From contig JBAZWB010000001.1 in NCBI GenBank assembly GCA_041660605.1, positions 462,879-526,878 of the forward strand: a stretch of DNA of 64,000 nucleotides, in the 5' to 3' direction. Position numbers and translations under genes: made by a program. The first letter of the stretch is position 1; each line of letters opens with the position of its first letter. This DNA is from Patescibacteria group bacterium. Lineage in GTDB: Bacteria > Patescibacteriota > Patescibacteriia > UBA10025 > JAHIVO01. Below are positions 1,877-28,573 of this stretch, in pieces. The notes under the pieces were generated by a model. The model worked only from the letters and a program-made list of their open reading frames with translations. It was not told the origin of the DNA and searched no databases.

Positions 1877-1896
1877 TTATTAGAAAAATTAAATAT

Positions 1897-2484
1897 ATGG
1901 CAATAACGACAGAAAATATAAAAAAGTTAAGGGAGCAGACCGGTGTCGGCATCATGGATGCAAAAACTGCCCTGAAAAATAATGACGGTGATTTCACTAA
2001 GGCGATTGACTATCTGAAAAAGCAGGGGCAGAAAGTTGCCGAGAAAAAACAGGATCGGAAGACAAAAGAAGGAGCTATCGGATATTATATTCATGCCAAT
2101 CACAAAGTAGCCGCACTGGTGGCGTTGGCTTGCGAAAGCGATTTTGTCGCCAATACAGATGATTTCCGTGATCTCGCCCATGATCTGGCTATGCAGGTAG
2201 CCGCAACAGATCCCACTTATATCAGCCCTAAGGATGTGCCGGCTGAGATAATTGGGAAAGAAAAAGAGATATATTCAGCCCAGCTGAAAAAAGATAAAAA
2301 ACCGGATAATATTATTGATAAAATAATAAAAGGCAAACTGGATAAATTCTATTCGGAAGTCTGCCTGATCAAGCAGCCATTCATCAAGGAAGACAAGAAA
2401 ACCATTGAAGACATTATCAATGAAAAAATTCTGAAACTGGGCGAGAATATCCAGATTAAAGAAATTAAAAAAATGTCTTTATGA
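1897..2484 (+). CDS. tsf: elongation factor Ts (short form)
   Basis: N-terminal UBA-like segment ITTENIKKLREQTGVGIMDAKTAL plus the dimerisation core; immediately downstream of rpsB, which is the conserved synteny. Confidence 0.9.
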   Translation: MAITTENIKKLREQTGVGIMDAKTALKNNDGDFTKAIDYLKKQGQKVAEKKQDRKTKEGAIGYYIHANHKVAALVALACESDFVANTDDFRDLAHDLAMQVAATDPTYISPKDVPAEIIGKEKEIYSAQLKKDKKPDNIIDKIIKGKLDKFYSEVCLIKQPFIKEDKKTIEDIINEKILKLGENIQIKEIKKMSL

Positions 2485-4138: not shown

Positions 4139-4204
4139 ATTTTTGTTTAGTTTTTAAAATTTTTTACCTTATAGTCTACCCACCGGCAAGTAGGCTCAGC
4201 TTGC

Positions 4205-4225
4205 CCCGCCTAGTTTAGGCGGGGT
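4205..4225. repeat. REP-like GC-rich palindrome, empty form (CCCCGCCTA gtt TAGGCGGGG)
   Basis: Perfect 9-bp arms. The same arm sequence flanks tRNA-Thr(GGT) at 4396-4487. Confidence 0.5.
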
Positions 4226-4405
4226 GAAGTAGAACAACTCCGCGCGTGAATAGTTGTTACGGATTACGTGTCCGCAAACAAGTTACGGCCACTTCACCCT
4301 TCGCAACATTCCCGCTTTTTCCTAAAAATGCCAAGCATTTTTAGGAATTGATAATTTAAAATTATTTATAGTAGTTAATCTAGAGGCTCAGCTTGCCCCG
4401 CCTCA

Positions 4406-4478
4406 GCCGATGTAGCTCAGTTGGTAGAGCAACTCCATGGTAAGGAGTAGGTCGTCGGTTCAATTCCGACCATCGGCT
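4406..4478 (+). tRNA. tRNA-Thr (anticodon GGT)
   Basis: Manual fold: acceptor GCCGATG/CATCGGC, D arm GCTC-AGTTGGT-AGAGC, anticodon arm ACTCC-ATGGTAA-GGAGT, T arm GTCGG-TTCAATT-CCGAC. 73 nt, no encoded CCA. Confidence 0.85.
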
Positions 4479-4480
4479 GA

Positions 4481-4636
4481 GGCGGGGTGAAGTAGAGCAA
4501 CTCCAGGCAAAGTCCTATACCCAAAACGAAAAGCTGTGGTATGTGAGTAAGAAGATCAGGGTTCCCCCGCCACAATAAATTTAATCTATTTATGTAGGGC
4601 GGGGTCCGCCTTTGGCGGAAATTCCGACCATCGGCT
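4481..4636 (+). pseudogene. degenerate tRNA-Thr(GGT)-like duplicate
   Basis: Keeps ...AGAGCAACTCC (D arm 3' strand through anticodon-stem 5' strand) and ATTCCGACCATCGGCT (T loop through acceptor). About 115 nt of unrelated sequence replaces the anticodon region. Confidence 0.4.
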
Positions 4637-4824
4637 TAGAGCGGGTAATACTACGGTTCCAGGATCACAGGCTTGACTGTTTTATATAAAGATAGTAAAT
4701 TCATAAGTTATTTTACAATGGTTTGTTCGGATACTAGCACCGAATAGCCTCACCAGGTGGGCAGGTACCCCCGGCATGCGCCGGGGCAGGCTCCGTGGTC
4801 AGTCTCTGTATTAACAACTATAGA

Positions 4825-4884
4825 GAATTAATGATCAAGTCATATAAAGGCGGAGAAGCTTTTAAGAGGCTCATTAAGAAATAA
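4825..4884 (+). pseudogene. 3'-terminal remnant of a second GIY-YIG gene copy
   Basis: Encodes ...LMIKSYKGGEAFKRLIKK*, nearly identical to the last 19 codons of the 5070..5312 gene, directly after L copy A. Confidence 0.55.
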
Positions 4885-4967
4885 ATAACCTCACCAGGTG
4901 GGCAGGTACCCCCGGCATACGCCGGGGCAGGCTCCGTGGTTAATCTCTGTATTAACAACTATGAAGT

Positions 4968-5003
4968 GGGTGGGTACCGAAGTGGTCAAACGGGGCAGAC
5001 TGT
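4968..5003 (+). pseudogene. tRNA-Tyr 5' half (through anticodon position 34/35) followed by unrelated insert
   Basis: Identical to the first 36 nt of the intact tRNA-Tyr at 5396, then diverges at ...GACTGT|CCCGCC. The AAATCTGC motif of the anticodon loop/stem reappears 52 nt later. Confidence 0.5.
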
Positions 5004-5069
5004 CCCGCCACAAAAAATAATATTGAATGAAGGCGGGATGCCGCCAGAGGCGGCATAAATCTGCATAAT

Positions 5070-5312
5070 ATGTTTAATGTCTATATATTAATAAGTCTGA
5101 GTTCAAGTTATTATTATATTGGTCACACAGTAAATATAGTTAAAAGGCTTAAGCAGCATAATTCAGGACATGTAAGGTCTACAAAAAGAGGTATCCCTTG
5201 GATATTAGTTTATAAAGAAATATGTAAGACAAAATCGGAAGCATACAAAAGGGAATTATTAATTAAATCATATAAAGGCGGAGAAGCTTTTAAGAGGCTC
5301 ATTAAGAAATAA
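5070..5312 (+). CDS. small GIY-YIG nuclease family protein (Slx1/YhbQ-like URI domain)
   Basis: YILISLSSSYYYIGHTVNIVKRLKQHNSG...RGIPWILVYKE...KSEAYKRELLIK matches the GIY-YIG consensus (GIY, YIG, R, E, N). Confidence 0.8.
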   Translation: MFNVYILISLSSSYYYIGHTVNIVKRLKQHNSGHVRSTKRGIPWILVYKEICKTKSEAYKRELLIKSYKGGEAFKRLIKK

Positions 5313-5321
5313 ATAACCTCA

Positions 5322-5625
5322 CCAGGTGGGCAGGTACCCCCGGCATACGCCGGGGCAGGCTCCGTGGTTATTCTCTGTATTAACAACTATGAAGTGGGTG
5401 GGTACCGAAGTGGTCAAACGGGGCAGACTGTAAATCTGCTGGCTCCGGCCTACGTAGGTTCGAACCCTACCCCACCCACTTCATAGTTGTCCTTAAGGAG
5501 ACTGCTTGTGCCGCCGAATGGCGGCATAAATCTGCTGGCTCTCCTCGAGTCTGAGCGACGAGGTCGCTAGTCCTCGGAGTCGATGACCGGCCTACGTAGG
5601 TTCAAACCCTACCCTGCCCACCTGG
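5322..5625 (+). other. nested tRNA-like structure enclosing tRNA-Tyr, with co-varying acceptor strands
   Basis: 5' CCAGGTGGGCAGG-TA-CCCC(CGGCATACGCC)GGGG-CAG... at 5322-5360. 3' ...AAATCTGCTGGCTC[46-nt insert]CGGCC-TAC-GTAGG-TTCAAAC-CCTAC-CCTGCCC-A-CCTGG at 5528-5625. The 13-bp outer stem pairs perfectly. Confidence 0.25.
5396..5478 (+). tRNA. tRNA-Tyr (anticodon GTA), class II with long variable arm
   Basis: Acceptor GGGTGGG/CCCACCC, anticodon arm GCAGA-CTGTAAA-TCTGC, variable arm TGGCTCCGGCC, T arm GTAGG-TTCGAAC-CCTAC. Flanked by an 18-bp perfect extended stem. Confidence 0.85.
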
Positions 5626-5665
5626 AGAGAGTTATTCAGAAGTAGTTTGTCCCGCCATAGCTGCT

Positions 5666-5737
5666 GCCACCCTAGCTCAGTGGTAGAGCAACGGTTTTGT
5701 AAACCGTAGGTCGTCGGTTCAAGTCCGACGGGTGGCT
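5666..5737 (+). tRNA. tRNA-Thr (anticodon TGT)
   Basis: Acceptor GCCACCC/GGGTGGC, D arm GCTC-AGTGGT-AGAGC, anticodon arm ACGGT-TTTGTAA-ACCGT, T arm GTCGG-TTCAAGT-CCGAC. 72 nt; flanked by CCCGCCATAG / CTATGGCGGG. Confidence 0.85.
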
Positions 5738-5740
5738 ATG

Positions 5741-5808
5741 GCGGGATAAAGTAGAGCAACGGTTTTGTAAACCGTAGGTCGGGGGTTCGAATCCCTTCGC
5801 TGGCTCCA
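5741..5808 (+). pseudogene. chimeric tRNA pseudogene
   Basis: Copies tRNA-Thr(TGT) D-arm 3' strand through variable loop (AGAGCAACGGTTTTGTAAACCGTAGGTC), then a different T arm/acceptor ending in CCA. The 5' acceptor does not pair with the 3' strand. Confidence 0.35.
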
Positions 5809-5849
5809 GCCAAAATTATAAATAAATCATTAAAATGTAATAAAAATTT

Positions 5850-6005
5850 ATGTCACAGGACAATTTGTTAAAATTTGAATGCAAGGAATGCCATCACATC
5901 AATTACCATTCCAAAAAGAATAAAAAAATTCTGAAGAACAGGATTGAATTGAAAAAATTCTGCAAATGGTGCAAAAAACATACCTTGCATAAGGAAACGA
6001 AATAA
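5850..6005 (+). CDS. rpmG: 50S ribosomal protein L33
   Basis: 51-aa ORF below the ORF-track cutoff: [51 protein letters not shown]. Zinc-ribbon C..C...C..C and C-terminal HTLHKETK are typical L33. Confidence 0.85.
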
Positions 6006-6144
6006 TGTTGAAAACCCCTTTCAGAAAGTGGTTTTCAATGCTTTCCGCAAACTAGATGATTCGCTCGCCCTGAAATGTCATGCCAGAGGCAGATCCGTCT
6101 TTGGCGGAAATTCAGGGCTCGCGGTTGATAAAATAAATTTTCAG

Positions 6145-6219
6145 GGGAGCATAGTGAAATGGCTATCACAAGGGTCTCCAAAACCCTTATTCTAGGTTCG
6201 AGTCCTAGTGCTCCCGCCA
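6145..6219 (+). tRNA. tRNA-Trp (anticodon CCA), CCA end encoded
   Basis: Acceptor GGGAGCA/TGCTCCC, anticodon arm AGGGT-CTCCAAA-ACCCT, T arm CTAGG-TTCGAGT-CCTAG, then GCCA. Confidence 0.85.
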
Positions 6220-6516
6220 GTGTCCGCCAACGGGCGCTTAGAGTGGAAAACTTTTCTAAAGAAATTTATAGTTAGAATCATGTTCAGCAAGGACATGGTG
6301 TATTTTGCATTAAATATATATTTTCTTTAACATTAAAATGAGGGAGGAAACGACGAATTTGTCACAAAAGAAATAGACGTCGGATAAGGAGCGGGTTAAC
6401 CCCCCCCCTCTTTTTTTGTGCTCAGCGGAAAATTTTACCACCCACGAAGCCAAAAAATAAAAAACCAGGCAAAGGCCCGGTTTTCCAGTTAGAGTACAAT
6501 TCGCTAAAGGAACAGA

Positions 6517-6879
6517 TTATGCTGCTCGTGTCCCGAACCACGAAGGTGGTTCAACGGGCTTCTCTCTTTCGGCGTCTGGTGGCATCAGTTCCGGGCAGTG
6601 TTCATCGATGATCATTTCCAGTTCCACACGTCGTTTTTGCTCCCAGACGTAGCGCTGGAATAGCTCGTTTACATACCACTGAACCAGCTCACCCACGCGA
6701 GCTCCGAATCGACGAGCCAGCATGTCGGTGAATTTCCTGTTCAGGCGTTCTTTCCAGTTTCGGCAAACCTGAAGCGTGATATTCAACCGTCTCATTTTTG
6801 CCAGACCTTCTTCATTCATGAGGTACCTCATTTCCGTAGCAGTTGTGAAAACTACATTATTGTAACTTTCTGCTACCAC
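6517..6879 (-). CDS. hypothetical protein in a compositionally atypical (GC-richer) segment
   Basis: 120-aa ORF, basic and W/R-rich. Local sequence is visibly GC-richer than its flanks. Confidence 0.35.
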   Translation of the reverse strand: MVAESYNNVVFTTATEMRYLMNEEGLAKMRRLNITLQVCRNWKERLNRKFTDMLARRFGARVGELVQWYVNELFQRYVWEQKRRVELEMIIDEHCPELMPPDAEREKPVEPPSWFGTRAA

Positions 6880-7165
6880 CGAATGAGGAGCATATTAGTC
6901 TAGCATATTCGTCATTTTTGTCAATAGCAGCTATGCTAAATCCACAGATTCGTAGAGAAAGGTTCTAACTTTCTCTACTAGCCCCCGCCAACAGGGCTAA
7001 TTGGCACACCATTAACTATGATGTATCAATTTTTGTAATTCTTGACATATTGAATTATTCATTTTGTAATCAAATGATTTCAAGCTAAATTATTGCTTAA
7101 TACGAACTTAATCACTGCTATGCTAAGCTTAGATTTAACCTTGAATTAACTAAATTTTTTAATAT

Positions 7166-7366
7166 ATGAAATTAATTGTCTGTAAAGAAGTTTCGGGGAT
7201 AATTACCTGCTATTTTATTGCCCGCGCGGATAATGCGATGGGTGCGAAAGAAATGTTGAAAAAGCATGGCTATGCCGCGCATCCAAAATGGATGTATAGT
7301 TTAACTGAAGACGAAATGAGATCTGTGGAGGTCAGGATGAGCGAAATGATGAAGGAGGAGAAATAA
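7166..7366 (+). CDS. small hypothetical protein
   Basis: 66-aa ORF directly upstream of the PEBP gene. Confidence 0.35.
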   Translation: MKLIVCKEVSGIITCYFIARADNAMGAKEMLKKHGYAAHPKWMYSLTEDEMRSVEVRMSEMMKEEK

Positions 7367-7371
7367 AATCG

Positions 7372-7824
7372 TTGAAGTTTATGAGATTAACAAGTCCACA
7401 TTTTAATAACAATAAATCAATACCTTCCAGGTTTACTTGTGAAGGTGAAAACATCAATCCACGCCTGGAAATTTACGATGTTCCGGAAACGGCGAAAAGC
7501 CTGGTTTTGATCATGGAAGATCCGGACGCTACTATTGGTATTTTTGATCATTGGCTGATCTGGAATATGCCCGTTGATCAATCCGGAATCGGCGAAAACA
7601 GCACGCCTCCGGGAATCCAGGGCGTAAATTCTGCGGGCAAAAACGGTTATATTGGGCCGTGTCCGCCTACTGGCGAACACCGTTATTTTTTCAATCTTTA
7701 CGCTCTGGACACTAATATTTCACTGGACCGCACGACCGGCAAAGCCAGGCTGCATCAGGCGATGTCCGGTCATATTGTTGCTCAGACGCAATTAATCGGC
7801 AGATATAAGCGTTCAAAATTATAA
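7372..7824 (+). CDS. YbhB/YbcL family PEBP (Raf kinase inhibitor-like) protein
   Basis: DPDAT...HWLIWN...GxNSxGxxGYxGPCPPxGxHRYxFxLYALD is the PEBP family signature. Confidence 0.8.
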   Translation: MKFMRLTSPHFNNNKSIPSRFTCEGENINPRLEIYDVPETAKSLVLIMEDPDATIGIFDHWLIWNMPVDQSGIGENSTPPGIQGVNSAGKNGYIGPCPPTGEHRYFFNLYALDTNISLDRTTGKARLHQAMSGHIVAQTQLIGRYKRSKL

Positions 7825-10840: not shown

Positions 10841-10916
10841 GACAGGTTTTTAGTAATAAAAAAAGGCCGTAGGTGCATGGACCTACGACCGTTAGATTGT
10901 TGTTGTGTGATTTGGA

Positions 10917-12437
10917 TCAGAGGGACACTCCGTAAAGTGTTCCGAACTTTTTCGTGATATATTCCTTCCAGTATCTTGCCGTCAGCGGTTCGCCGGTGGC
11001 TTTCGTCAGGACGCTGTTCAGGGAATCGACATGTCCGGTGGGGTAAATATTACCGCTCAGCCAAGTACGAAGATTGGCGAATTTTCCCGTTGCGAAATCT
11101 GCTTCATATTCCGGGTCAATCTTGGTAAAGGCGGCGAATTCCTGGGCGCTGGCCAGCGTTCCCAGGGTATAGGTGCCGAAATAGCCGAAATATCCCGATC
11201 CCCAGTGAATATCCTGAAGAGCGCCTTCTTTCGGATCTGTTGGCCGGTAGTCGACGTACTTCTCTACCAGGTTGGCGAAAACATCAGGAATATCAGCGAC
11301 CGATATTTGGTCGGAAAGCAGGAGCTGCTCGATTTTGAAGCGGACAAGGATATGCCCATGGTATGTCAGCTCGTCAGCCTCCACGCGGATTCCGCTGGGC
11401 CTGACCAGGTTGATGGCCCTGTAGAATTCCTCCAGTGGGACATTCTGGAATTCGCGGAACATCAGCTGAAGGTGTGGGTAGAAGTATTTCCAGAAACTCC
11501 AAGAACGGCAGACCATGTTTTCCCACAACCGGGACTGCGATTCATGCAGAGCCATCGAGAGAAACATACTGCTGTTATCAAATCCCCAGAAAAGATCCGG
11601 TGCGCCTTGTTCAAGCATGGCATGTCCGGCTTCGTGCGCTGTGCCGAATATGCCGGCAGCCAGGTAGTTTGGGTAAAATCTGGTGGCAATGCGGTGGTCT
11701 CCGGCGCAAATGGTACTGGCAAAAGGATGGGCGGCTATTGCCAGGGATCCACGCTTGAAATCATAGCCGATAACCGTAGCCAGATATTCAGCCAGTTGCC
11801 GTTGCTTGTCAGTCGGGAAACAGCCGCGCAAAACCGCGTCAGAGCGATTTGCGCCAGCACCTGTTATTGTCTGAATGGTTTTTCCCAGCCATTCGCCGAG
11901 ATCATCCAATACCTGGAGAACTTCCGCGGTAGTCGCGCCAGGTTCGAATTGTCCGAGCAGCGCGTTCGAAATTGAGTCAGGTTCGCCGGGATCAGCGCCA
12001 AGAAGAGCCGCTTCTTCTTTCGCCAGAGTGAGGACATGCGTCAATTCGGGCGCGAAGAGCGTGAAATTTCCCTCAGCGCGCGCTCTGGTCCAGACATTCG
12101 TGGCTTTGGCATGAGCCTGGTTGCGTCGTTCGACAAAATCAGCTGGCAGGGCGAGAGCGCGATTAAGGCAGAGGCGCAGACGCTTAACTAGCAATGCCTC
12201 AAACGGGGACAGTTCTTTGGTGGCAGTTTCGCATCGTCCAAGTGCGTCACTTACCGCGCTTGAAGTAAAGGCTTCGTGTGCCAATTTTGTAGCGAAAGCG
12301 GATCGTCTTTCCGAGTCTTTTTCGCCTCCGACTGGCCGGCCTGTTCTCGCGTCATAATTCGATAGGGCGGCTAGTTGGCTTAATAGATTTGCCGATTCGA
12401 GTACGGCAGTTAACTTGTCAACGTTCGGATGTGCCAC
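10917..12437 (-). CDS. M32 family carboxypeptidase (Taq-like)
   Basis: HPFASTICAGDHRIATRF, HEAGHAMLEQG (HExxH) and IHWGSGYFGYFGTYTLG motifs; gene visibly GC-richer than neighbours. Confidence 0.8.
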   Translation of the reverse strand: MAHPNVDKLTAVLESANLLSQLAALSNYDARTGRPVGGEKDSERRSAFATKLAHEAFTSSAVSDALGRCETATKELSPFEALLVKRLRLCLNRALALPADFVERRNQAHAKATNVWTRARAEGNFTLFAPELTHVLTLAKEEAALLGADPGEPDSISNALLGQFEPGATTAEVLQVLDDLGEWLGKTIQTITGAGANRSDAVLRGCFPTDKQRQLAEYLATVIGYDFKRGSLAIAAHPFASTICAGDHRIATRFYPNYLAAGIFGTAHEAGHAMLEQGAPDLFWGFDNSSMFLSMALHESQSRLWENMVCRSWSFWKYFYPHLQLMFREFQNVPLEEFYRAINLVRPSGIRVEADELTYHGHILVRFKIEQLLLSDQISVADIPDVFANLVEKYVDYRPTDPKEGALQDIHWGSGYFGYFGTYTLGTLASAQEFAAFTKIDPEYEADFATGKFANLRTWLSGNIYPTGHVDSLNSVLTKATGEPLTARYWKEYITKKFGTLYGVSL

Positions 12438-13871: not shown

Positions 13872-14666
13872 ATGGACAACATACTTGAGCCAAAAACAGA
13901 AGACCGCCGTTTTATCAAGTTGCGGCGTTTTAATTTAATAATGGCGGTTTTGCATTTTGTCCAGGGAATCGTCATGCTGGTTTTAAGCACGGATTTTTCC
14001 CTGCCAGTCACCTCCGCTTTTCTCAAATTTAATACTGCCTCGCAGGCACTCCAGCCAAGTTTGCACACACTATTTAATCTGCGCATCGGGCCATTAGTGG
14101 CTGGATTTCTTTTTATCTCGGCTTTGGCTCACGCCCTGATTTCAATCTGCCCTGGCATTAACCGGTGGTATAATCGCAATTTAGCCAAAGGCATTAATCT
14201 GGCCCGCTGGATGGAATACGCATTCAGTTCTTCACTGATGATCGTTGTCATCGCCATGCTGGTGGGCATTTATGACATAGTCAGTTTGTTGGCGATATTT
14301 TTCCTAAACGCCATGATGATATTATTCGGCTGGATAATGGAAGTGCATAACCAGACCACCCAAAAGACCAACTGGATCTCGTTTTGGTTCGGTAGCCTGG
14401 CCGGGTTTATTACCTGGGTGGCTGTGGCCATTTATTTATTCGGTTCCGGCGAGCCGGGGATGAGAGCACCGACGTTTGTCTATTGGATTTATTTTTCCAT
14501 ATTCCTGTTTTTCAACTGTTTTGCCATTAACATGATTTTGCAGTATAAGAAAGCGGGTAAGTGGCGGGATTACCTTTACGGCGAACGAGCTTATATCATC
14601 CTCAGCCTGGTCGCCAAGTCATTACTGGCCTGGCAGGTTTTTTTCGGCACTTTGCGGCCGGTTTGA
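13872..14666 (+). CDS. heliorhodopsin
   Basis: 7-TM protein collinear with HeR 48C12: RWMEYAFSSSLMIVVIA, AIFFLNAMMILFGW, FWFGSLAGFITW, GERAYIILSLVAKSLLAWQVFFGTL, including the TM7 lysine. Confidence 0.85.
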   Translation: MDNILEPKTEDRRFIKLRRFNLIMAVLHFVQGIVMLVLSTDFSLPVTSAFLKFNTASQALQPSLHTLFNLRIGPLVAGFLFISALAHALISICPGINRWYNRNLAKGINLARWMEYAFSSSLMIVVIAMLVGIYDIVSLLAIFFLNAMMILFGWIMEVHNQTTQKTNWISFWFGSLAGFITWVAVAIYLFGSGEPGMRAPTFVYWIYFSIFLFFNCFAINMILQYKKAGKWRDYLYGERAYIILSLVAKSLLAWQVFFGTLRPV

Positions 14667-14707
14667 TTTTTGAATATTAATCCACCCGCCTTGTTTTAGC
14701 CCTAATA

Positions 14708-16072
14708 TTGGCTTATAATAAACTTGGAGCAAACAGTAATTATATTGCTATGAAAAATACTAACTTATTTTTATACGGCATAATATTAGTGGCGTTGCTG
14801 TTTTTTGGTTATGCGCCAACGACTCAGGCCGCCATCGACGATTGTCCCGCTGGTTATGAATGGCAGCGGATGAGCGGGGTGGGTTGTGTGCAGATAAACT
14901 GCGCCACGGTTCCGGACGGGCATTATTCATATACCAGCCAGTGCATCTGCGGCTCTTCGGGCAGTGAGTGGGAAAACGCCGCAGATCCCAATAAAGAGTG
15001 CAATTATTCCCACGATTATGCCAGTTGTCCGAATTGCCTTTATGCCTGCGTGCATTTGAATGAAGAATGCCCGGCTGCACCCGGTGATGCTACTACGAAT
15101 ACTAATACGGTAAGTACGAATAAAAATATTAATATAGTATTGAATTCAAACACGGCAGTCAACACCAGCGCCTCTGCCAATCAGAATGTTAATCTGCTCC
15201 TGGCTAATACCGCCCTGCCTTCGCTGTCCATGCCTGCTATCACCAACAACGGTTCTTGTACAGATGAATGCAATAAATATTTACGGGATAAGAAAAATGC
15301 CGTAGTGGTTTCAGCTGAAGGGGTGTTTCCCGACTGCCAGTGCCAGATAGACGTGCGGGATGAGAATGGCACGCTGACCCAGACCATTTCCTCAGACGGA
15401 CCGGTGGTGACTACTTATACTTATGATTCATCAGGCGCGCTGACTGATAAGAGCGTCATCAACCGCACCGAAGAAGTGGAGAAAGTCCGCAAGCGCCTGG
15501 GCTATAAATACACCGAGGAGCAAATAGATAAGCTGCTGGATCCGACAGTGATAGATAAATGGTTTCAGGATCAAACCGGCAAGATTGTCACTGCCACTGG
15601 CTTGAGTGAGCCGCAATTCTGGTGGCAGCATTTCGTGGCCGTGCTGGACCACGGTTTTGGGGGCAACAGCGCTGATTTTGTGGATACGCACAATTTCGGA
15701 CGCTGTGGAGATTCCATGCAGTGGCTGGAACGCGATCTCGTCAGCCAGCTGCACTTGGGAGATGACCCTGAAGAGCCGGGACAGAAGCACGAGGCCATCC
15801 TGTCCATTACCGGAGAAAAATACGGCAATTTTTTAAATCACACCTCGATTTTAGTGAGACCGGCCGGCATAACGAATTCTGAATGGGAAGATATTGTTAA
15901 AGAGCTGAAAAAGCTATCCGGCGGTCAGGAAGATAATCCGGGCATCCAGCCGAATAATCTCCAAAACGTCGATCCGCGTCTGATGGACGCGAAAGTATTG
16001 GATCCATATAAAAAGCAGATCACCACCGTACGGGAGTTCATCAAAGGATGGTCTTACATCCGGATCAGCTAA
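14708..16072 (+). CDS. secreted Cys-rich protein with N/T-rich linker, unknown function
   Basis: Signal/TM after the internal Met (14750), 14 Cys in the first ~110 residues, then a low-complexity linker and a C-terminal domain. Confidence 0.5.
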   Translation: MAYNKLGANSNYIAMKNTNLFLYGIILVALLFFGYAPTTQAAIDDCPAGYEWQRMSGVGCVQINCATVPDGHYSYTSQCICGSSGSEWENAADPNKECNYSHDYASCPNCLYACVHLNEECPAAPGDATTNTNTVSTNKNINIVLNSNTAVNTSASANQNVNLLLANTALPSLSMPAITNNGSCTDECNKYLRDKKNAVVVSAEGVFPDCQCQIDVRDENGTLTQTISSDGPVVTTYTYDSSGALTDKSVINRTEEVEKVRKRLGYKYTEEQIDKLLDPTVIDKWFQDQTGKIVTATGLSEPQFWWQHFVAVLDHGFGGNSADFVDTHNFGRCGDSMQWLERDLVSQLHLGDDPEEPGQKHEAILSITGEKYGNFLNHTSILVRPAGITNSEWEDIVKELKKLSGGQEDNPGIQPNNLQNVDPRLMDAKVLDPYKKQITTVREFIKGWSYIRIS

Positions 16073-16082
16073 TTAGAAATTT

Positions 16083-16580
16083 ATGCTGAAAAAATTATTT
16101 AAATTTATTTTATTCTTGATCCCGACATTAGCGATAATTTTAATTGTGGCTTACGTGGTTTTTAATCATGTGCCGGTCTCAACCTATGCGGTACAAGAAA
16201 CAAACCCGCAAGACCAGTGGGGGACTATCACTGGTTCATTAAGCTATCCCAGCGAAACTATTCCGCCAATGGGCATCTGCGCCAAATCAGTAAAAGGCGT
16301 GGAAATGTTCTGCACTTATAAAATGATTCAGGACGATAAATACGCCAATAGCTATGGTTATGAATTGTCCGTGCCGCCGGACAATTATTATGTTTTTGCC
16401 CATCTGATAACAGCCGGCAAAGAAAATATCGGTTATACGGATGAGTACCAGGCATATTATTCCAAATTCGTAACCTGCGGCCAGCTGGTTGAGTGCACTT
16501 CGCATAAGGCAATTAAGGTGGAAGTTTCGAATAATCAAAAAATTGATGATATCGACCCCGTTGATTGGTATAACACATGA
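16083..16580 (+). CDS. membrane-anchored hypothetical protein
   Basis: N-terminal TM helix, ORF. Confidence 0.45.
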   Translation: MLKKLFKFILFLIPTLAIILIVAYVVFNHVPVSTYAVQETNPQDQWGTITGSLSYPSETIPPMGICAKSVKGVEMFCTYKMIQDDKYANSYGYELSVPPDNYYVFAHLITAGKENIGYTDEYQAYYSKFVTCGQLVECTSHKAIKVEVSNNQKIDDIDPVDWYNT

Positions 16581-16712
16581 GAAGGCAACCAAAGGTTTCC
16601 TTCTCATCGCTTATCCTTCCATATTGATATCGCTCACCTTGGGACCTCCCGCCCGACTGCTTCGCATTCGAAGCGGGCGCGGTATAACCCAAGGTTCGCG
16701 ATGATTTAATTT
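16580..16712. repeat. MITE-like structured repeat, copy 1
   Basis: GAAGGCAACCAAAGGTTTCCTTC hairpin, ATCGCTCACCTTGGG...CCCAAGGTTCGCGAT long stem, ends CGCGATGATTTAATTTA. Paralogous to 17259-17362. Confidence 0.5.
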
Positions 16713-16735
16713 AAAAATTATTAAATAATCGGCTA

Positions 16736-16948
16736 ATGGATAATCAAGGAAATTTAACTGTAAAAACGTTGGCCATAAAAAAATGGTTGGTGTGGTTTAT
16801 CGTAATCGTTGTTTTAGGTGCAATATTATTTATCCCTTATTTGCGCATCCCGGCCAAGTGCATTCCTTGTCCATCTGAGATGACTTACTGTCCGCCTTGC
16901 CCGACGTATAACCAGAGTCTGGCCGGGTATTTGAGGGATAAATTATAA
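16736..16948 (+). CDS. small membrane protein with CxxC pairs
   Basis: TM helix then CIPCPSEMTYCPPCP. Confidence 0.3.
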   Translation: MDNQGNLTVKTLAIKKWLVWFIVIVVLGAILFIPYLRIPAKCIPCPSEMTYCPPCPTYNQSLAGYLRDKL

Positions 16949-17163
16949 GTAAATATATTCTCCGAGCGCAGGCGTCTCTGCCTGCGCTCACTTGCCCACC
17001 TGGTCGCGCACCCACAGAGGGGTGCGCTCGGGATTGGAAGATTTCGGTATGCACCCTTGTCCAGAGCGGGTCCCCGCCTGCGTTGCCAGTGCGGCGGGCA
17101 GGTCTGTGCCAGCGATGTGCTCGTTTCAGCATCTCAAATTTACTCGCGAGTAAAGTATGATAT

Positions 17164-20745: not shown

Positions 20746-22302
20746 ATGCCCCAAAAAACTACAAAAAAATCCAACGGCACGAACGCCGGCTTTGAAGCGA
20801 CTCTCTGGGCCGCAGCTGACAAAATGCGCAATAACATGGATCCGGGTGAATATAAGCACGTGGTTCTTGGTTTGATTTTTATCAAGTACATTTCCGACGC
20901 TTTTGAAGAGATTTACAACAAAATCAAAGCTGATCCTGACCACTACGAAGGTCAAGAAGAAGATAGAGACGCATACACGTCGGAAAGTGTCTTCTGGGTG
21001 CCACAAGATGCACGTTGGGAATATTTGAAATCAAATGCCAAGAAGCCAGAAATCGGCAAGCTTGTTGACGATGCAATGGTTGCAATTGAGAAAGACAACC
21101 CCAGCCTAAAAGGAGTTCTCCCAAAAAGTTATGCCCGTCCTGACTTAGACAAAGTTCGGCTTGGCGAGTTAATCGACCTCATCAGCACCATCGGCCTCGG
21201 CGATAAAGAAAGTCGAAGTAAAGATATTCTTGGTGGCGTCTATGAGTATTTCCTCGGACGGTTTGCTTCTGCCGAAGGTAAGGGCGGTGGTGAATACTTT
21301 ACTCCAAAATCTGTTGTGAAATTGCTCGTGGAAATGCTCGAGCCATACAAAGGCCGCGTCTACGACCCCTGTTGCGGTTCAGGCGGCATGTTTGTGCAAA
21401 GTGAAAAATTCGTTGAAACACACGGTGGCAGCAGGCACGACCTCGCAATTTATGGACAGGAATCAAACCCGACCACTTGGCGCCTGTGTAAAATGAACTT
21501 GGCCATTCGCGGAATCGAAGGCGACCTTGGGCCTCATAACGCCGACACATTTCACAATGATTTACATAAAGAGCTCAAAGCTGATTACATTCTCGCCAAT
21601 CCGCCATTCAATATCAGCGACTGGGGCGGTGAGAGATTGAAAGACGATGTCCGCTGGAGTCTTGGCGTGCCGCCTGCAGGTAATGCCAACTACGGCTGGA
21701 TTCAGCATATGGTGCATCATTTAGCCACTACTGGTATCGCTGGGTTTGTCTTGGCAAATGGCTCACTGTCGTCAAACACATCTGGTGAAGGGGAGATACG
21801 AAAAAAGATGATCGAAAAAGGCCTGGTGGACTGTATCGTCGCTATGCCAAGTCAGCTTTTCTACACCACGCAAATTCCTGCGTGTTTGTGGTTTGTTTCA
21901 CGGGAGCGGCACGACCACAAATTCCGCGACCGACATGATGAAATTCTATTCATTGACGCTCGTAAAATGGGGACAATGATCACGCGTAAAAATAGGGAAT
22001 TAACCACAGAAGATATTGAAAAAATATCTGGCGTCTACCACGACTGGCGCAATAAAAAGGGTAACTATAAAGACGTTAAGGGTTTTTGCAAAGCAGCGAA
22101 AATTGAGGAAGTTGAAAAAGCCGGATTTGTACTCACCCCCGGCCGTTATGTTGGCACGGATTATGTGGAAGAAGATGACGGTACTTTTGAAGAGAAAATG
22201 ACAAAATTGACGAAGGAATTATCTGGTCAATTCAAGCAGTCAAAAGAACTTGAGGAAAGGGTGAAGAAAAACCTCAAAGATATCGGCTATGAAATCAAAT
22301 AA
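20746..22302 (+). CDS. hsdM: Type I restriction-modification system methyltransferase subunit
   Basis: HsdM N-terminal domain plus N6-MTase motifs ([13 protein letters not shown] in [12 protein letters not shown]). Confidence 0.9.
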
Positions 22303-23251
22303 AGTTTTAGTAATCTTTGAGACGAATATTATTAGAAATCCGAAATATAATTTTGGCGAAATAGATTTTGGATCGGATTTTGGCTCAGTACGAGAATATG
22401 TAAGAAATAATGAACTAACAAATCTTGTTGATTTCGCAATTGCACAGATGAGTATCGACGAACTATCTTATGGAAGGCAAGCAGAATATCAGAGTGATAA
22501 GGGGAAGCTTTTTGAGTTAAGTAGCAGAATGAATGGCGTGCCAGGATTTAAAATTATTAATCCGCAAGATGATTTTCAGTTTCCCACATTTTATAGGGGG
22601 CATGTTAATAAATTTATTAAACGAAATAAGTTGATCATAATTGGGTATCCTCCAAAAATAGTCTTTAGTAATGTAATTCTAAGAAGTTTAGAGAAGCGCC
22701 CGCCTTTTTTGGTGTCAAATCAACATTCTGATTATGGGTTTAAAGATGTAATCATTTGGGAATCGATTTTATGCTTTAAGTCAATACGAAAATATAATAA
22801 AGTTGTTTTATTTACAAATGATTTAGGATTTGAAAGTCAATGCGAAAAAGAATTTTCAAAAGTTCACCCGTGTTACTTTAAAATTTGTAAAGATTTCGAG
22901 AGTGTTATTAAAGAACTTGAAGTAAGTGAGGGTATCAAAGTTGCGATTGAGGGTGACACTGATATAGCGGACGATGAGCGCACGGAACTTATAGCGCTGG
23001 TGTATTCAGATTATTTTATTTCAAGTTTAACTAACTTTATTAAAGAAAGTATAAAAATTGATGAAGGTAGATCTATTGAGCTTTTGAGTCCGATGACTAA
23101 TTCTGAAGACAATATTATTGACGATGAAGTCGTTGGAAAAATTATTTATTCCAAAGCCAGGGTTAAAGTTGATGGTGAAATAAAGAGAATTAATATTAAA
23201 ACTGTTCTTGATGATGCTAATGGCATAGAAAGTCATGAGATATATGAATAA
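22289..23251 (+). CDS. unknown protein with predicted PIN-like N-terminal domain, embedded between hsdM and hsdS
   Basis: Pattern [11 protein letters not shown] ... DVIIWESIL ... VLFTNDLGF resembles the PIN acidic-residue layout; overlaps hsdM by 14 nt and hsdS by 17 nt; very AT-rich. Confidence 0.45.
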
Positions 23252-24392
23252 AACGAGCGCAAAATCTATTAAGTCGGAAACGGAGTATTACCCAGATGGG
23301 TGGAAACTGAATATAATTGGGGATTTTTTATCACTAGAATATGGCAAAGGACTAAAAGAAGATCTGCGAAAGCCGGGTAAGGTTCCTGTGTATGGTTCGA
23401 ATGGTGTTGTTGGTTATCATAATGAACAAATGGTAGATGGTCCAGGAATTATTGTTGGAAGGAAGGGGAGTGCGGGGGAGGTTATTTTTTCTAAAAAAGG
23501 ATTTTTCCCAATTGATACAACATATTTTGTTAAAACTAATTTAGATAAAAGCTATATATATTATTTGTTAAAAAACCTTGACCTTAAAAAATTTGTTGGT
23601 AGTAGCGCAGTCCCTGGTTTAAATAGGAATGATGTTTATTCTCAAATAGTAGCAATACCCAAAGCGGAAAACGAACAACAAAAAATCGCCGAAATACTTT
23701 CTTCCCTCGACGACAAAATAGAGCTCAACCGGCAGATGAATGCAACCTTAGAAAAAATCGCCAGTACACTTTTCAAAAAATGGTTTGTGGATATTGGTGA
23801 TGAGTTGCCAAAGGGGTGGAAGAAAGGTGCAATCAGCGATTTCGGAAGTGTCATATGCGGGAAGACACCACCAAAATCGGTAAAGGAGTATTTTGGTGGC
23901 AATTTTCCTTTTATTAAAATACCCGATATGCATGGGAGTCCTTTTATCTTTATTACAGAAGATAGTCTTTCTGAGATGGGGATGAATTTTCAAAAAAATA
24001 AGGTAATCCCAGCTGGTTCTATTTGTGTAAGTTGTATTGCTACAGTTGGCTTAGTAAGTATGACGACCGTTAATTCGCAAACCAATCAGCAAATTAATTC
24101 GATTGTTCCTTCGGAGAAGTATTATCAGTTTTATCTATACGAAACATTTAAAAATATTAGTGGACTACTGCAAAGAATGGGTAGTAGTGGTTCTGCAACA
24201 CTAAATGTGAATACAACCTCTTTTTCCGCTATAGAAATATTAAGACCCACTGACGCAGCCCTAGAAAAATTCGACAGAATTGTAAGGCCATTTTTTGATC
24301 AAATAAAACATAATTTACAAGAAAATATCAATTTATCAATTCTTAGAGACTCACTTTTGCCTCGTTTAATGAGCGGAAGGATTAGGGTATGA
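23235..24392 (+). CDS. hsdS: Type I restriction-modification system specificity subunit
   Basis: Two target-recognition domains separated by conserved IPKAENEQQKIAEILSSLDDKIELNRQ; C-terminal LPRLMSG. Confidence 0.85.
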   Translation: MRYMNKTSAKSIKSETEYYPDGWKLNIIGDFLSLEYGKGLKEDLRKPGKVPVYGSNGVVGYHNEQMVDGPGIIVGRKGSAGEVIFSKKGFFPIDTTYFVKTNLDKSYIYYLLKNLDLKKFVGSSAVPGLNRNDVYSQIVAIPKAENEQQKIAEILSSLDDKIELNRQMNATLEKIASTLFKKWFVDIGDELPKGWKKGAISDFGSVICGKTPPKSVKEYFGGNFPFIKIPDMHGSPFIFITEDSLSEMGMNFQKNKVIPAGSICVSCIATVGLVSMTTVNSQTNQQINSIVPSEKYYQFYLYETFKNISGLLQRMGSSGSATLNVNTTSFSAIEILRPTDAALEKFDRIVRPFFDQIKHNLQENINLSILRDSLLPRLMSGRIRV

Positions 24393-25210
24393 TATTTTTA
24401 CGATATTTTATTAAAAGATATTGGTCATATATTATCAACGTTTGTGTTGGCATTTTTTCACTTTTAGCACCATTTATTTTTCCATTTCCAAAAAATATCT
24501 TTGGCGTTGAGTTGTCATTAGGAATATATCTTTCTGTTTTTTCATTATTTTTAGCATTTATTTTGTCTCTATTCCTAGCCTCCAGACCGAAAAAATTATT
24601 TCATATTTCTTTAACAAGTAGAAAACATGGTGATTTGTGGGTTGGCAATGGGACCTTTGACTATGACCGAGAACGTAAGACGCATTTCATTACCAATTCA
24701 TTTTATGGCTTTATTTTCCCACCAGCACTTAATTTAGTTGATTATAAAGTAACCTTTGAATTTAAGATTGCAACGTCGTGCCTTGGTGTAATTGTCCGGG
24801 CAGTAAATTCATACGATTTCATAATGCTACAAATTGAGAAGCAGGGCATTAACCCACATGTATTTTTGAATGGTGCTTGGCAACGATTTGAACATTCAGC
24901 GACAAATCTTTCATTTGTTCCTATGATAAATGAGGATAAATGGTATAAGGTCACAATATGTTGTTTAAAAAAGAAAATTTCCATTCAAATGATAGATTTT
25001 GATTTTAATCGCGAATGGCAAATTCCACAAACAATAGTTCTTAATTTTCCAAAAGGTAAACCTAAAGATAAAATACCGGGCGAAGAAATTCAAGTTGAGG
25101 AAGTTACACCAATATATTTACCTGTGAATTTAGATATTGGCACTATTGGTTTCAGGAACGCAGGTCAAGAAAAAGCGTATATAAAAAATGTTTATATTGA
25201 ATCAATTTAA
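24389..25210 (+). CDS. membrane-anchored protein of unknown function embedded between hsdS and hsdR (possible jelly-roll/LamG-like domain)
   Basis: Two N-terminal TM helices, then a ~200-aa soluble domain (YKVTFEFKIATSCLGVIVRAVNSYDFIMLQIE); ATGA overlap with hsdS. Confidence 0.45.
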   Translation: MIFLRYFIKRYWSYIINVCVGIFSLLAPFIFPFPKNIFGVELSLGIYLSVFSLFLAFILSLFLASRPKKLFHISLTSRKHGDLWVGNGTFDYDRERKTHFITNSFYGFIFPPALNLVDYKVTFEFKIATSCLGVIVRAVNSYDFIMLQIEKQGINPHVFLNGAWQRFEHSATNLSFVPMINEDKWYKVTICCLKKKISIQMIDFDFNREWQIPQTIVLNFPKGKPKDKIPGEEIQVEEVTPIYLPVNLDIGTIGFRNAGQEKAYIKNVYIESI

Positions 25211-25219
25211 TTAAGTTAC

Positions 25220-28200
25220 ATGTCATATAAAAAATACACCGAATCTGATTTAGAAAACGCAATCCTTGAATGGCTTGAGGAGTTAGGGCACTCGGTTATA
25301 TTTGGTCCAAATATTGCTTTTGATGGCGAATCGCCAGAACGCAAAACATATCAAGATATTGTTTTAGTTGAACGGCTGCGGGCTGCTGTCCAGCGAATCA
25401 ATGCTGAAATTCCTCATGAAGCGCGAGAAGAGGCAATAAAAAAAGTGGTTAACGCTGCGTATTCTAGCCCGAGCCCGATGGTTACCAATCGTGAGTTTCA
25501 TAGAATGTTGGTTGAAGGTGTTGATGTTGAATACCGACGTAAAGATGGGTCAATTGCAGGGGATAGAGTTTTACTTATTGATAAAGAGAAGCTAGGAAAC
25601 AATGACTGGCTGGCTGTGAATCAGTACACGGTCATTGAGAATAATCACAATCGACGGCCTGATGTGGTGGTGTTTGTGAATGGTTTGCCGTTGGTGGTGT
25701 TTGAGCTCAAAAATCCAGCGGATGAATATGCCAAAATTCAGGGTGCATTCAATCAGATTCAAACATACAAAAACGAGATTTCATCACTTTTTACTTATAA
25801 TGCATTTTGCGTAATTGTTGACCACGTGAAAAATGGGCTGGTGGGTACTATATCGGCAAACATGGATCGATTCATGAGCTGGAAAAGTGTTGATGGCCAG
25901 AAAGTTATTAAGAGTAATGATGTTGAGACACTGATAAAAGGAATGTTTGATAAGCAGCGTTTGCTGGATATTGTTTCGAATTTTATTGTATTTGAAGATG
26001 AAAAAGATTCTAAGAATAACGTCAATAGAACCACCAAGAAGCTCGCAGCGTATCACCAGTATTTTGCGGTAAATAAAGCTGTTGAGCGAACGGTTGTAGC
26101 GACATCGCCAGACGGTGATAGAAGGGCAGGGGTGGTGTGGCATACGCAAGGGTCAGGCAAGAGTTTGAGCATGGTGTTCTATGCCGGGAAGATTATCCAG
26201 CGGCTAGATAACCCAACGCTTGTACTACTTACCGACCGGAATGACTTAGATGGCCAGCTTTTCGGCGTGTTTTCCGGCTGCCATGATTTAGTTCGTCAAA
26301 CTCCAATGCAGGCAGATAATCGAGCACATTTAAAGACTCTGCTCAATGTGGCATCGGGCGGTGTTGTATTTACAACCATTCAAAAGTTTTTCCCTGAAGA
26401 TAAATTTGAAAAGCATCCATTACTTTCAGACCGCAAAAACATAGTCGTGATTGCTGATGAGGCGCACCGGAGCCAGTATGATTTTATTGACGGATTTGCG
26501 CGGCACATGCACGATGCTTTACCTAATGCATCGTTTATTGGCTTTACTGGTACGCCGATTGAACTATCCGATAAAAATACCCGGGCGGTGTTTGGAGAAT
26601 ACGTAGACGTGTATGATATTATTCGCGCGGTGAATGATAAAGCGACGGTGCCGATTTACTACGAAGCGCGGTTGGCAAAAATCGAGCTCATTAAAGCAGT
26701 CACGCCGACAATTGATAAGGATTTTGAAGAGCTGACCGAAGGTGAAGAGGTAGCAAAGAAAGAAAAACTCAAGAGTAAGTGGGCGCGGCTTGAAGCAATG
26801 ATTGGTTCCGAAAAGCGCATCGCCTTAATTGCTCGTGATATCATTGATCATTTTGAAGCGCGATGTTTTGCAATGGAAGGCAAGGGGATGATTGTGGCCA
26901 TGAGCCGAAGAATTGCAGTTGAATTGTATGAAGAAATTATTAAACTTCGGCCACAGTGGGCAAATACTGATTTACGAAAAGGTTTTATTAAAGTAGTAAT
27001 GACCGGATCAGCGAGCGACCCCGAAAATTACCAGCAACATATTCATACTAAAGATGATCGTGATGTTTTAGCGACTCGCATGAAAGATCCATCAGATGAA
27101 TTAAAGCTGGTGATTGTACGAGATATGTGGCTGACTGGTTTTGATGTGCCCTCACTTCATACGATGTATGTAGATAAACCGATGAAAGGGCATGGTCTGA
27201 TGCAGGCAATCGCACGTGTAAACCGAGTGTTTAAAGACAAACCAGGCGGATTGATTGTTGATTATCTTGGTATAGCGCCATCTTTGAAAGAGGCGGTTGC
27301 ACAGTATACGCAAGAAGGAAAAGAAGAGCCAACAATTGATCAAGAAGAGGCGGTGAGTGTTATGTTGAGTAAGTACGAGGTGGTGAAGGATATGTATCAT
27401 GAATTTGATTATAAGCAGTACTTTTCTGGTAAAGCCAAGGATAAAGCCGAGGTGGCTGGAAAGGCAATGGATTATATCCTGGGTTTAAGTGACGGGAAGA
27501 AACGCTATTTGCAAGCAGTAGCAGAATTATCTCAGGCCTTTGCCTTGTCTGTTCCAAATAGCGAAGCGTTGCGAATTCGTGATGAGGTAGCGTTTTTTCA
27601 AACTGTACGAGAATTTATTGCTTCATTTGAAAAAGGTGGTGGTTTGGGTGGGCCAACAATGGACGACTATGATCAGGCGATAAAGCAGCTCGTCGCTGGA
27701 GCGGTCGTATCAGATGAGGTAATTAATATTTTCAGTGCAGCTGGTTTGAAGACTCCAGACATTTCAATTCTTTCTGATGAATTTTTGAAAGAGGTGAAGA
27801 ATTTGAAACGAAAGAACGTTGCATTTGAGTTATTGAAAAAGTTGCTTAATGACGAAATTCGCTCCATGGAAAAGAAGTTTTTGGTAAAGTCGCGGTCATT
27901 CGCCAAAATGCTTGAAGAAACTATTAAGAAGTATCAAAATCAAACAATTGAAGTTGCGCAAGTTATTGCTGAGTTGGTTGATTTAGCTAAAAAGATTCGC
28001 GAAGAAAAGGGGAGAGGTGAAAATCTTAATCTTACTGAAGATGAGGTGTCATTTTATGACGCTCTTTGTGACAATGAGAGCGCTGTTCGCGAACTTGGCG
28101 ACGAAACACTGAAGAAGATTGCTCATGAACTCGTTTCGATGCTACGCAAAAATACTTCGATTGACTGGACACTCAAAGAACAGGTAAGGGCAAAATTACG

Positions 28201-28318
28201 AGTTTATGTGAAGAAGTTATTGAACAAGTTCAAATATCCGCCAGATAAACAAGAGGGAGCAACCAAGACAGTTTTAGAGCAAGCAGAAATTTTGTGTAAG
28301 GATTGGAGTGGGGAGTAA
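25220..28318 (+). CDS. hsdR: Type I restriction enzyme R subunit
   Basis: 1032 aa; helicase motif [13 protein letters not shown], motif [12 protein letters not shown]; HsdR N- and C-terminal architecture. Confidence 0.9.
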
Positions 28319-28573
28319 AAAGTTTCAAAAATACAAAAACAAATTTCCCTTCAAAACAAAAAAGTTAAATAGACTGGAAAGTAATTACCAATTTCCAATT
28401 TATCAAATATCAAACCCCGAACAGTTGCTCGTTGCACTCGCAACTTACGGGGCAGGCAAATACCAATAATCAAATTTCAATAAATAGCCAATACTCAATG
28501 CTGGAATGGGCAGAAAGCTATAGGTTGGGGGTTAGATAGAGGGGAGACAGATAAAACATTAGGTTTAGGCATG

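Follow-up and report, generated by a model that had tools for sequence, protein, structure and literature searches.

Closest Described Systems and the Locus

The nuclease PrrC was held latent by EcoprrI, a Type I restriction–modification (R-M) enzyme, and was freed by the T4 anti-restriction peptide Stp (PMC3014915; PMC12707154). Payne et al. placed PrrC "almost exclusively" within R-M systems of Type I. In the Ronin system, the toxicity of RonA was suppressed by HsdMS and was unleashed by Ocr or ArdA (Silas et al., bioRxiv 10.1101/2023.04.06.535777). In this study, a gene for a predicted nuclease, gene X, was analyzed in a stretch of 64,000 nucleotides (nt) from a Patescibacteria group bacterium (contig JBAZWB010000001.1, positions 462,879 to 526,878; the whole stretch is called the window). 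X lies between hsdM and hsdS of a Type I R-M operon and is a genuine member of a known, uncharacterised PIN-nuclease family, PIN_12 (Pfam PF16289, formerly DUF4935). The main finding is that nearly all relatives of X sit inside Type I R-M operons. By analogy with the systems above, X is a candidate for a back-up "suicide" nuclease that would guard the restriction enzyme in whose operon it lies.

PIN-domain proteins have also been reported as defence effectors. Cosus, with a PIN12 domain, blocked T7, and the substitutions T12A, D14A and D96A greatly weakened its defence (bioRxiv 10.1101/2024.07.02.601719). Furthermore, the PIN RNase systems DS-3 and DS-5 needed their catalytic residues and had no antitoxin (PMC13092281). 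Thus, PIN proteins can act as anti-phage effectors without an antitoxin. The family of X was described by Matelska et al. in 2017 as DUF4935, a group of VapC-type PIN-like nucleases of "function unknown" that were "usually expressed as mono-cistrons" (PMC5499597). In these proteins, a PIN domain at the N-terminus, which carried conserved acidic residues and a long insert of helices behind strand 2, was followed by an alpha/beta region at the C-terminus that was less conserved and for which no homologue was detectable.

The operon in the window is composed of five co-oriented genes in the order hsdM-X-hsdS-Y-hsdR, with spacings of −14, −17, −4 and +9 nt. Its features are as follows (ORF, open reading frame; aa, amino acids; AF2, AlphaFold2; pLDDT, predicted local distance difference test).

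20746–22302, + strand: hsdM, Type I R-M methyltransferase subunit, 518 aa; Pfam HsdM_N (E 9e-28) and N6_Mtase (E 4e-110)
22289–22302, + strand: overlap of the hsdM stop and the X start, 14 nt (...GGCTATGAAATCAAATAA); the ATG of X at 22289 is inside the last hsdM codons
22289–23251, + strand: gene X, two-domain PIN_12-family protein, 320 aa; AF2 model with a mean pLDDT of 77.6
22310–22831, + strand: PIN domain of X, residues 8–181, with a helical insert at about residues 60–112
22901–22969, + strand: flexible acidic linker of X, residues ~205–227; pLDDT below 50 at 214–227, the most indel-rich part of the alignment
22970–23248, + strand: C-terminal domain of X, residues ~228–320, predicted cystatin/NTF2-like; two helices on a four-stranded antiparallel sheet
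23235–23251, + strand: overlap of the X stop and the hsdS start, 17 nt (8 nt if the hsdS ATG is at 23244)
23235–24392, + strand: hsdS, specificity subunit, 385 aa, two target-recognition domains; Pfam Methylase_S in two stretches (E 4e-44)
24389–25210, + strand: ORF Y, 273 aa, two predicted transmembrane (TM) helices, in the hsdS-hsdR slot
25220–28318, + strand: hsdR, restriction/translocase subunit, 1032 aa; Pfam HSDR_N, SWI2_SNF2, T1R_D3-like and T1RH-like_C

The host operon has the composition of a Type I R-M system, with HsdM, HsdS (two target-recognition domains) and HsdR intact and in the same orientation. An initial annotation, made from the letters of the window, had placed an ORF at 22289–23251 between hsdM and hsdS, and this position was borne out, with an overlap at each end. 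In EcoKI, hsdM and hsdS are translationally coupled (PMC3510504); therefore, X sits exactly at that coupling junction.

The ORF of X in the ORF list of the window is ATG-initiated, 963 nt long, 31.5% GC, with a GC content at third codon positions (GC3) of 0.24. An ORF of this length is unlikely to occur by chance because the region is AT-rich and stop codons are frequent there. Moreover, the reality of the ORF was backed by a curated Pfam match and by many homologues, of which the full-length ones had E values of 1e-43 to 1e-60. The NCBI entry identical to the X protein is named [quoted passage not shown] (MAG, metagenome-assembled genome) and lies on a contig of 960 kb. The scans of the operon for promoters, terminators and repeats gave counts at or below the shuffle expectation and none between the genes. 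No structured RNA or terminator signal was seen between the operon genes, and no tRNA was found near the operon.

The operon was a mosaic in GC3, with values of 0.48 for hsdM, 0.24 for X, 0.30 for hsdS, 0.23 for Y and 0.39 for hsdR, and the flanking genes had 0.48–0.61. This suggests that the middle X-hsdS-Y module was exchanged or was acquired from a lower-GC source.

X and PrrC of EcoprrI, a Type IC system, were alike in context, as both nuclease genes lie within Type I R-M operons and hardly ever occur outside them. The hosts were also alike, as the closest solved relative of the window HsdR was the HsdR of the Type IC enzyme EcoR124I (2w00, E 2e-39). The likeness may extend to the proposed logic, in which the nuclease would be latent while bound to the R-M enzyme and unleashed by anti-restriction. 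However, PrrC is composed of an ABC-type nucleoside triphosphatase (NTPase) and an anticodon-nuclease domain, whereas X is composed of a PIN domain and a small alpha+beta domain and has no NTPase; Pfam, NCBIfam and PADLOC gave no ATPase or PrrC-like match in X. The slot was different as well, with the genes arranged as hsdM-hsdS-prrC-hsdR in EcoprrI (PMC3014915) and hsdM-X-hsdS-hsdR here. The parallel with PrrC-type anticodon nucleases in the initial annotation therefore held for the embedding in a Type I operon but not for the slot, which is hsdS-hsdR for PrrC and hsdM-hsdS for X. Because of the missing NTPase domain, the different nuclease fold and the different slot, X is outside the PrrC/RloC family.

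Like the Ronin effector, X is tightly linked to hsdM and hsdS. It was different in that RonA is a membrane peptide of 61 aa in a system lacking hsdR, whereas X is a soluble predicted nuclease of 320 aa beside a full hsdR; X is thus not a Ronin system. The likeness to Cosus (Brc24) concerns the PIN12 domain reported by its authors, a comparison made by the shared Pfam name only, and the dependence of defence on predicted PIN residues including T12. In X, too, position 12 is a conserved Thr, which adjoins the first acidic residue. Cosus is a single gene in integrons without R-M linkage and acts against T7, whereas X is embedded in an R-M operon. In addition, X is more than twice as long as VapC and has a helical insert of about 50 residues and an extra C-terminal domain. 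VapBC carries an adjacent antitoxin gene, whereas the gene upstream of X is hsdM, with the 14-nt overlap. X is not a VapBC toxin because it has no antitoxin gene.

Genomic Context of the Family

Metagenomes were scanned with the family motif GFKD[VA][VIL]IW, and the best 80 of 158 matches yielded 75 non-redundant loci, which were scored by tblastn with the Hsd subunits of this window and of diverged loci. The orders (M, S and R for the hsd genes) were M-X-S-R in 36 loci, M-X-S in 13, M-X in 8, X-S in 5 and X-S-R in 1, so that 63 of the 75 had M-X-S-R or a truncation of that order. X occupied the S-R slot in four loci (S-X-R in 3 and M-S-X-R in 1). The remaining 8 loci showed X only and were short fragments, together with a distant stand-alone relative of 433 aa (L089). 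When at least 1.5 kb was available on both sides, the order was M-X-S(-R) in 34/34 loci. The end of hsdM was at most 400 nt from X in 43 of the 64 loci having at least 300 nt upstream, and for most loci the exact ORF ends put the hsdM stop between −19 and +33 nt relative to the first nucleotide of X.

Other samples gave a similar picture. The six close full-length homologues whose flanks could be used all stood directly after hsdM and before hsdS, and the HsdM proteins upstream of X homologues elsewhere were 52–82% identical to the window HsdM. Among the GTDB species representatives only two relatives were found, both in archaeal MAGs (one from Methanosarcinales) and both with the same arrangement. 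Four more distant PIN_12 proteins, similar in the N-terminal half only, were in or beside Type I operons whose HsdR had the same architecture, in the orders M-?-PIN-S-R (twice), PIN-M-S-R (once) and S-PIN-R (once). A cultured example was provided by the Bacillus thuringiensis plasmid pBT62A, with a methyltransferase, a "PIN domain-containing protein" and an S subunit. The embedding of X in Type I R-M operons was thus tight, nearly exclusive and position-specific across Bacteria and Archaea, and looks obligate.

The pBT62A operon (L092, NZ_CP044979.1 62127–65698) and two further loci (L052 and L068) were methyltransferase-PIN_12-S operons. No hsdR was detected downstream within 9 kb in pBT62A or within more than 5.6 kb in the other two. 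The outline of these hsdR-less operons resembles that of the Ronin decoy, and the operon of pBT62A is followed by an ABC-three-component (ABC-3C) system.

X and HsdM also diverged together. The Mantel correlation between their distance matrices was 0.756 over 46 non-redundant loci, and none of 5000 permutations was as high. X evolved about twice as fast as HsdM, with mean p-distances of 0.73 and 0.38, respectively. Viral contigs yielded no relatives.

In the literature that could be searched, nothing specific was found on PIN-domain proteins together with hsd genes or on a link of the whole family to Type I R-M, although others may have noted it. Furthermore, PF16289, PIN_12 and DUF4935 were not named in the accessible portions of the text of the embedded-gene catalogue of Payne et al. 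and its supplements. The PIN assignment of X (as the NCBI label) and the combination of a PIN domain with an unclassified C-terminal region (in 2017) were already known. Compared with the "mono-cistrons" of the DUF4935 description, X and its relatives of ~320–360 aa were almost all inside Type I R-M operons.

Family Assignment and Predicted Fold of the PIN Domain

Residues 8–181 of X matched the whole PF16289 profile (1–172 of 172) with an E value of 1.7e-12 and a score of 48.5 bits, above the curated cut-off of 32. The homologues of X had the same precomputed Pfam assignment. X shared with PF16289, as described, the whole-profile match, the N-terminal PIN domain, the helical insert, the conserved acids and an alpha/beta region at the C-terminus, and it fitted the described size and layout (~320–380 aa, N-terminal PIN plus alpha/beta C-terminal region). 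PADLOC, PHROGs and NCBIfam had no match for X. In PADLOC v2.0.0, from which the family is absent, no meaningful match was obtained for X, for the 39 other members of the family alignment or for four further relatives; three matches to unrelated models were at chance level (E 0.0015–0.0074). The PDB sequence searches with X and with a 40-sequence profile gave chance-level matches only.

An AF2 model of X was built on eight full-length family members. It showed a PIN domain at residues 6–200 and a domain of two helices and four strands at 228–319. The strands of the PIN domain (6–10, 47–52, 116–118, 171–175 and 196–200) alternated with helices, a long helical insert spanned about residues 53–112, and the model had the three-layer alpha/beta/alpha fold with a parallel sheet seen in solved PIN domains. 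In a structure search with the model, the top matches were VapC/PIN proteins.

The best single structural neighbour was PcrIIC1 (PDB 8wmm_G), a small protein solved in complex with a type II-C Cas9. The binding of a PIN-like accessory protein to the main effector of a defence system may have a precedent here.

Conservation was read from an alignment of 40 sequences, in which the relatives were 21–41% identical to X. Position 11 was acidic in 39/39, with E in the closest subfamily ("FETS") and D elsewhere ("FDTN"), and T12 was conserved in 39/39. E58 and D153 were present in all 40 sequences, the latter in an invariant G-F-K-D. D148, D178 and E188 were each conserved in 38 of 40, and E158 in 34 of 40. 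X thus has the four or five conserved acidic residues, putative metal ligands, of a PIN domain. On the model they were found where strand 1 ends, within the helix that follows strand 2, at the N-terminal end of helix 151–161 and just past strand 171–175, which in this prediction are the expected catalytic places of a PIN domain. Among the candidates for the third catalytic acid, D153, five residues before E158 of IIWES, is the best.

These results were in agreement with the PIN-like nuclease proposed at first, as the profile score was above the cut-off and the AF2 model, as far as a prediction goes, had a PIN fold rather than a non-nuclease fold. The four acidic positions named at that time (E11 of IFETN, D57/E58 of SIDEL, E158 of IIWES and D178 of FTNDLGF) were all present and all conserved in the 40-sequence alignment, but the invariant D153 had been missed, as had D148 and E188.

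C-Terminal Domain of X

The C-terminal third of X had no match in Pfam, NCBIfam, PHROG or PADLOC and no PDB sequence match. A profile search of 1.84 billion cluster representatives gave 776 relatives at E ≤ 1e-3, of which 49 were at E ≤ 1e-30. Many of the 776 were 320–340 aa long and aligned to the profile end to end. With clustering at 50% identity, the searched library contained about 780 clusters of the orphan Pfam family. The C-terminal part aligned across relatives, showed a Y-F motif (Y242, F243) as well as an L-D-D-x-x-G-I turn, and was separated from the PIN domain by a low-confidence, acidic, indel-rich linker. A cystatin/NTF2-like fold, which is a common fold, was predicted for this domain and is probably family-wide; the description of DUF4935 had left the fold of this region unassigned. 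The domain had at first been called novel. This was right in that no library matched it, but it is family-wide, had been published in 2017 and is predicted to adopt a common fold. The initial annotation was therefore partly supported overall.

The C-terminal domain alone was also used as a profile (25 sequences) in search of fusions to other effectors. No match at E ≤ 1e-3 was obtained, but as the domain is short and divergent, this says little about whether such fusions exist.

Partner Genes and Other Cargo at the Operon Junctions

A VapB-type antitoxin partner for X was ruled out, as hsdM is upstream and hsdS is downstream and both overlap X. No conserved small partner gene was found in the related loci. 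A conserved extra partner between hsdM and X was rejected as well. About ten related operons had one extra gene at this place (L010 at 6145–7822, L021, L022, L025, L029, L033, L035, L036, L044, L093 and L094), and the 11 inserted genes fell into unrelated groups: a Schlafen/AlbA_2-HATPase_c_4-winged helix-turn-helix protein, small TM/coiled-coil proteins and, assigned by eye only, DUF1016-like and DinD-like proteins. Because these extra genes were unrelated, the hsdM-PIN junction is an insertion hot spot in its own right.

The hsdS-hsdR slot, which holds PrrC in EcoprrI, is occupied by ORF Y in the window. The predicted TM segments of Y were at about residues 12–34 and 37–67, followed by a soluble part of about 200 residues, and no match was found in Pfam, PADLOC, NCBIfam or PHROG. 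In related loci the slot held a 275-aa protein without assignment, a Trypsin_2-like protein, an HNH_5-like protein, a Fic protein with a second unassigned gene, or two small ORFs. Six homologues of Y (35–37% identity) were stand-alone genes in housekeeping neighbourhoods. A two-gene system of X and Y was ruled out, since the slot occupants elsewhere were unrelated to Y (17–21% identity, no real alignment). Y is thus independent cargo, given these unrelated occupants and its stand-alone homologues. As the M-X insertions were heterogeneous and the S-R occupants were unrelated, X has no constant neighbours other than the Hsd subunits.

Some X-bearing operons were held in defence islands (L001 at 2319–6184 and 14604–16987, L006 at 186–2264, L093 at 446–3329 and L095 at 10869–10977). 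Their neighbours included a Peptidase_M78 and DUF4411-PIN pair (a predicted three-component toxin–antitoxin system), AAA_15/AAA_21 ATPases, McrBC, Mrr, GmrSD_N and SIR2_2.

Possible Role of X

We tentatively favour the reading that X is a back-up abortive-infection effector, a restriction guard accessory to the Type I R-M system, and regard this as plausible though somewhat short of probable. The X protein, a PIN_12/DUF4935 member, would be catalytically competent as a VapC-type PIN nuclease and co-expressed with the R-M genes. The genes hsdM, X and hsdS would be translated as a coupled chain, and X would be supplied in step with the M2S core. The cystatin/NTF2-like domain would dock X onto the HsdM2-HsdS core, with the PIN active site silent. 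A phage anti-restriction factor, either an Stp-like peptide or an Ocr/ArdA-type DNA mimic, would bind or distort the core, and X would then be released or activated. The freed X would cut cellular RNA (tRNA, rRNA or mRNA, like VapC enzymes), and translation would stop before the phage cycle completes. We infer by analogy the RNA substrate, the toxicity, the trigger, the physical contact with HsdM/HsdS and the part that the C-terminal domain would play in docking.

If the guard reading is true, X would be a second case of the PrrC principle, structurally unrelated and much more widespread, in which a restriction enzyme carries a dead-man's switch. In addition, an orphan Pfam family would be linked to a concrete biological role. 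The reading is readily testable, with five genes, clear catalytic residues and the known triggers Ocr and ArdA.

A wider form of this reading is held with more reserve and seems possible rather than likely. According to it, the whole PIN_12 clade of ~320–360 aa would be a widespread, unrecognised fourth component in one large lineage of Type I R-M systems in Bacteria (including the candidate phyla radiation (CPR)/Patescibacteria) and Archaea, a guard RNase docked on HsdM2-HsdS by a dedicated cystatin/NTF2-like domain that turns an anti-restriction attack into abortive infection. PrrC-style "anti-anti-restriction" would then be common, ancient and independently evolved in Type I systems and not an E. 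coli curiosity. That X is present in a Patescibacteria genome of roughly 1 Mb, and also among Methanosarcinales, suggests an investment in layered defence even by minimal genomes.

Several points weigh against the guard reading. The binding of X to HsdM/HsdS, its toxicity and its cutting of RNA rest on analogy, and an adaptor role of the C-terminal domain is unsupported, as this domain was not found with any other effector domain. TgvAB, which is embedded in a Type I R-M operon of Vibrio cholerae, protects when expressed alone (PMC11411939). A PIN_12 protein can likewise be autonomous, because the single gene of Cosus works outside any R-M system. Moreover, embedding alone can reflect an insertion hot spot, since both the M-S and the S-R junctions collect unrelated cargo. 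The census was conditional on the presence of X and on the best 80 of 158 motif matches, and distant relatives may differ; a 417-aa relative on a Rhodococcus plasmid and the 433-aa metagenomic relative were stand-alone genes. Finally, the GC3 of X, hsdS and Y (0.23–0.30) was far below that of hsdM and hsdR, which hints at module exchange and not strict co-inheritance in this genome.

The main alternative explanation, which we consider rather unlikely, is that X is an autonomous single-gene anti-phage nuclease that senses infection by its own C-terminal domain and rides at a permissive M|S site, co-transferred and co-expressed with the operon but physically and regulatorily independent of the Hsd proteins. 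The Cosus integron cassette and the self-sufficient TgvAB would be its models, together with DS-3, a one-protein PIN system that was proposed to be auto-inhibited (PMC13092281). The longer stand-alone relatives, the low GC3 of X compared with hsdM and hsdR, and the varied cargo at both junctions (Fic, Trypsin_2-like, HNH_5-like, Schlafen/AlbA_2 and TM proteins) are also consistent with it, and embedding gives linked transfer, as argued by Payne et al. However, the 34/34 well-flanked loci and the co-divergence with HsdM resemble PrrC more than promiscuous GmrSD-like cargo, and the overlap of start and stop codons at either end of X is conserved. The absence of relatives from viral contigs and from the PADLOC families, where mobile autonomous genes might be expected, also speaks against autonomy. 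If X were autonomous, it would be a new single-gene PIN defence candidate, yet one among the several hundred "embedded" candidates that bulk catalogues already list.

It is improbable that X is a regulatory or addiction module, that is, an RNase tuning the hsd mRNA (for example, to delay HsdS/HsdR in a new host) or a toxin neutralised by HsdM/HsdS that makes the cassette hard to lose. Such a role would suit the location of X at the hsdM-hsdS coupling point (PMC3510504) and its co-divergence with HsdM, and VapC toxins are classic addiction modules that need no phage (Matelska et al., 2017). However, there was no evidence of cleavage sites in the operon, and the gene boundaries were free of structured RNA and terminator signals. 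Moreover, the control of restriction in Type I systems is mainly post-translational. The addiction version overlaps in part with the guard reading and differs from it only in the trigger.

There is little likelihood that X is an accessory subunit aiding restriction, one that acts on DNA or on the R-M complex and not as a suicide RNase, for example by stimulating DNA binding or cleavage, by processing DNA that has been translocated or by serving as the nuclease of hsdR-less hsdM-hsdS loci. HsdR is complete, with a nuclease domain of its own, in most loci including the window, the structural neighbours other than PcrIIC1 and the family placement point to the VapC group, whose characterised members are RNases, and R-less M-S operons are also the outline of decoy or guard systems such as Ronin.

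Genes Downstream of hsdR

Two further genes were observed downstream of hsdR. The first (28625–29359, + strand) encodes a protein of 244 aa with a MerR-type helix-turn-helix (HTH) N-terminus and a C-terminal part of ~180 aa without assignment; a weak PADLOC match to "mad1" was confined to the HTH. The next gene (29369–29698, + strand) encodes a DUF4325 STAS-like protein of 109 aa. The best promoter-like site of the region (28590–28618) precedes this pair and overlaps a 26-nt imperfect inverted repeat (28560–28620). The gene pair 3' of hsdR (28560–29698) may be another small defence or regulatory module.

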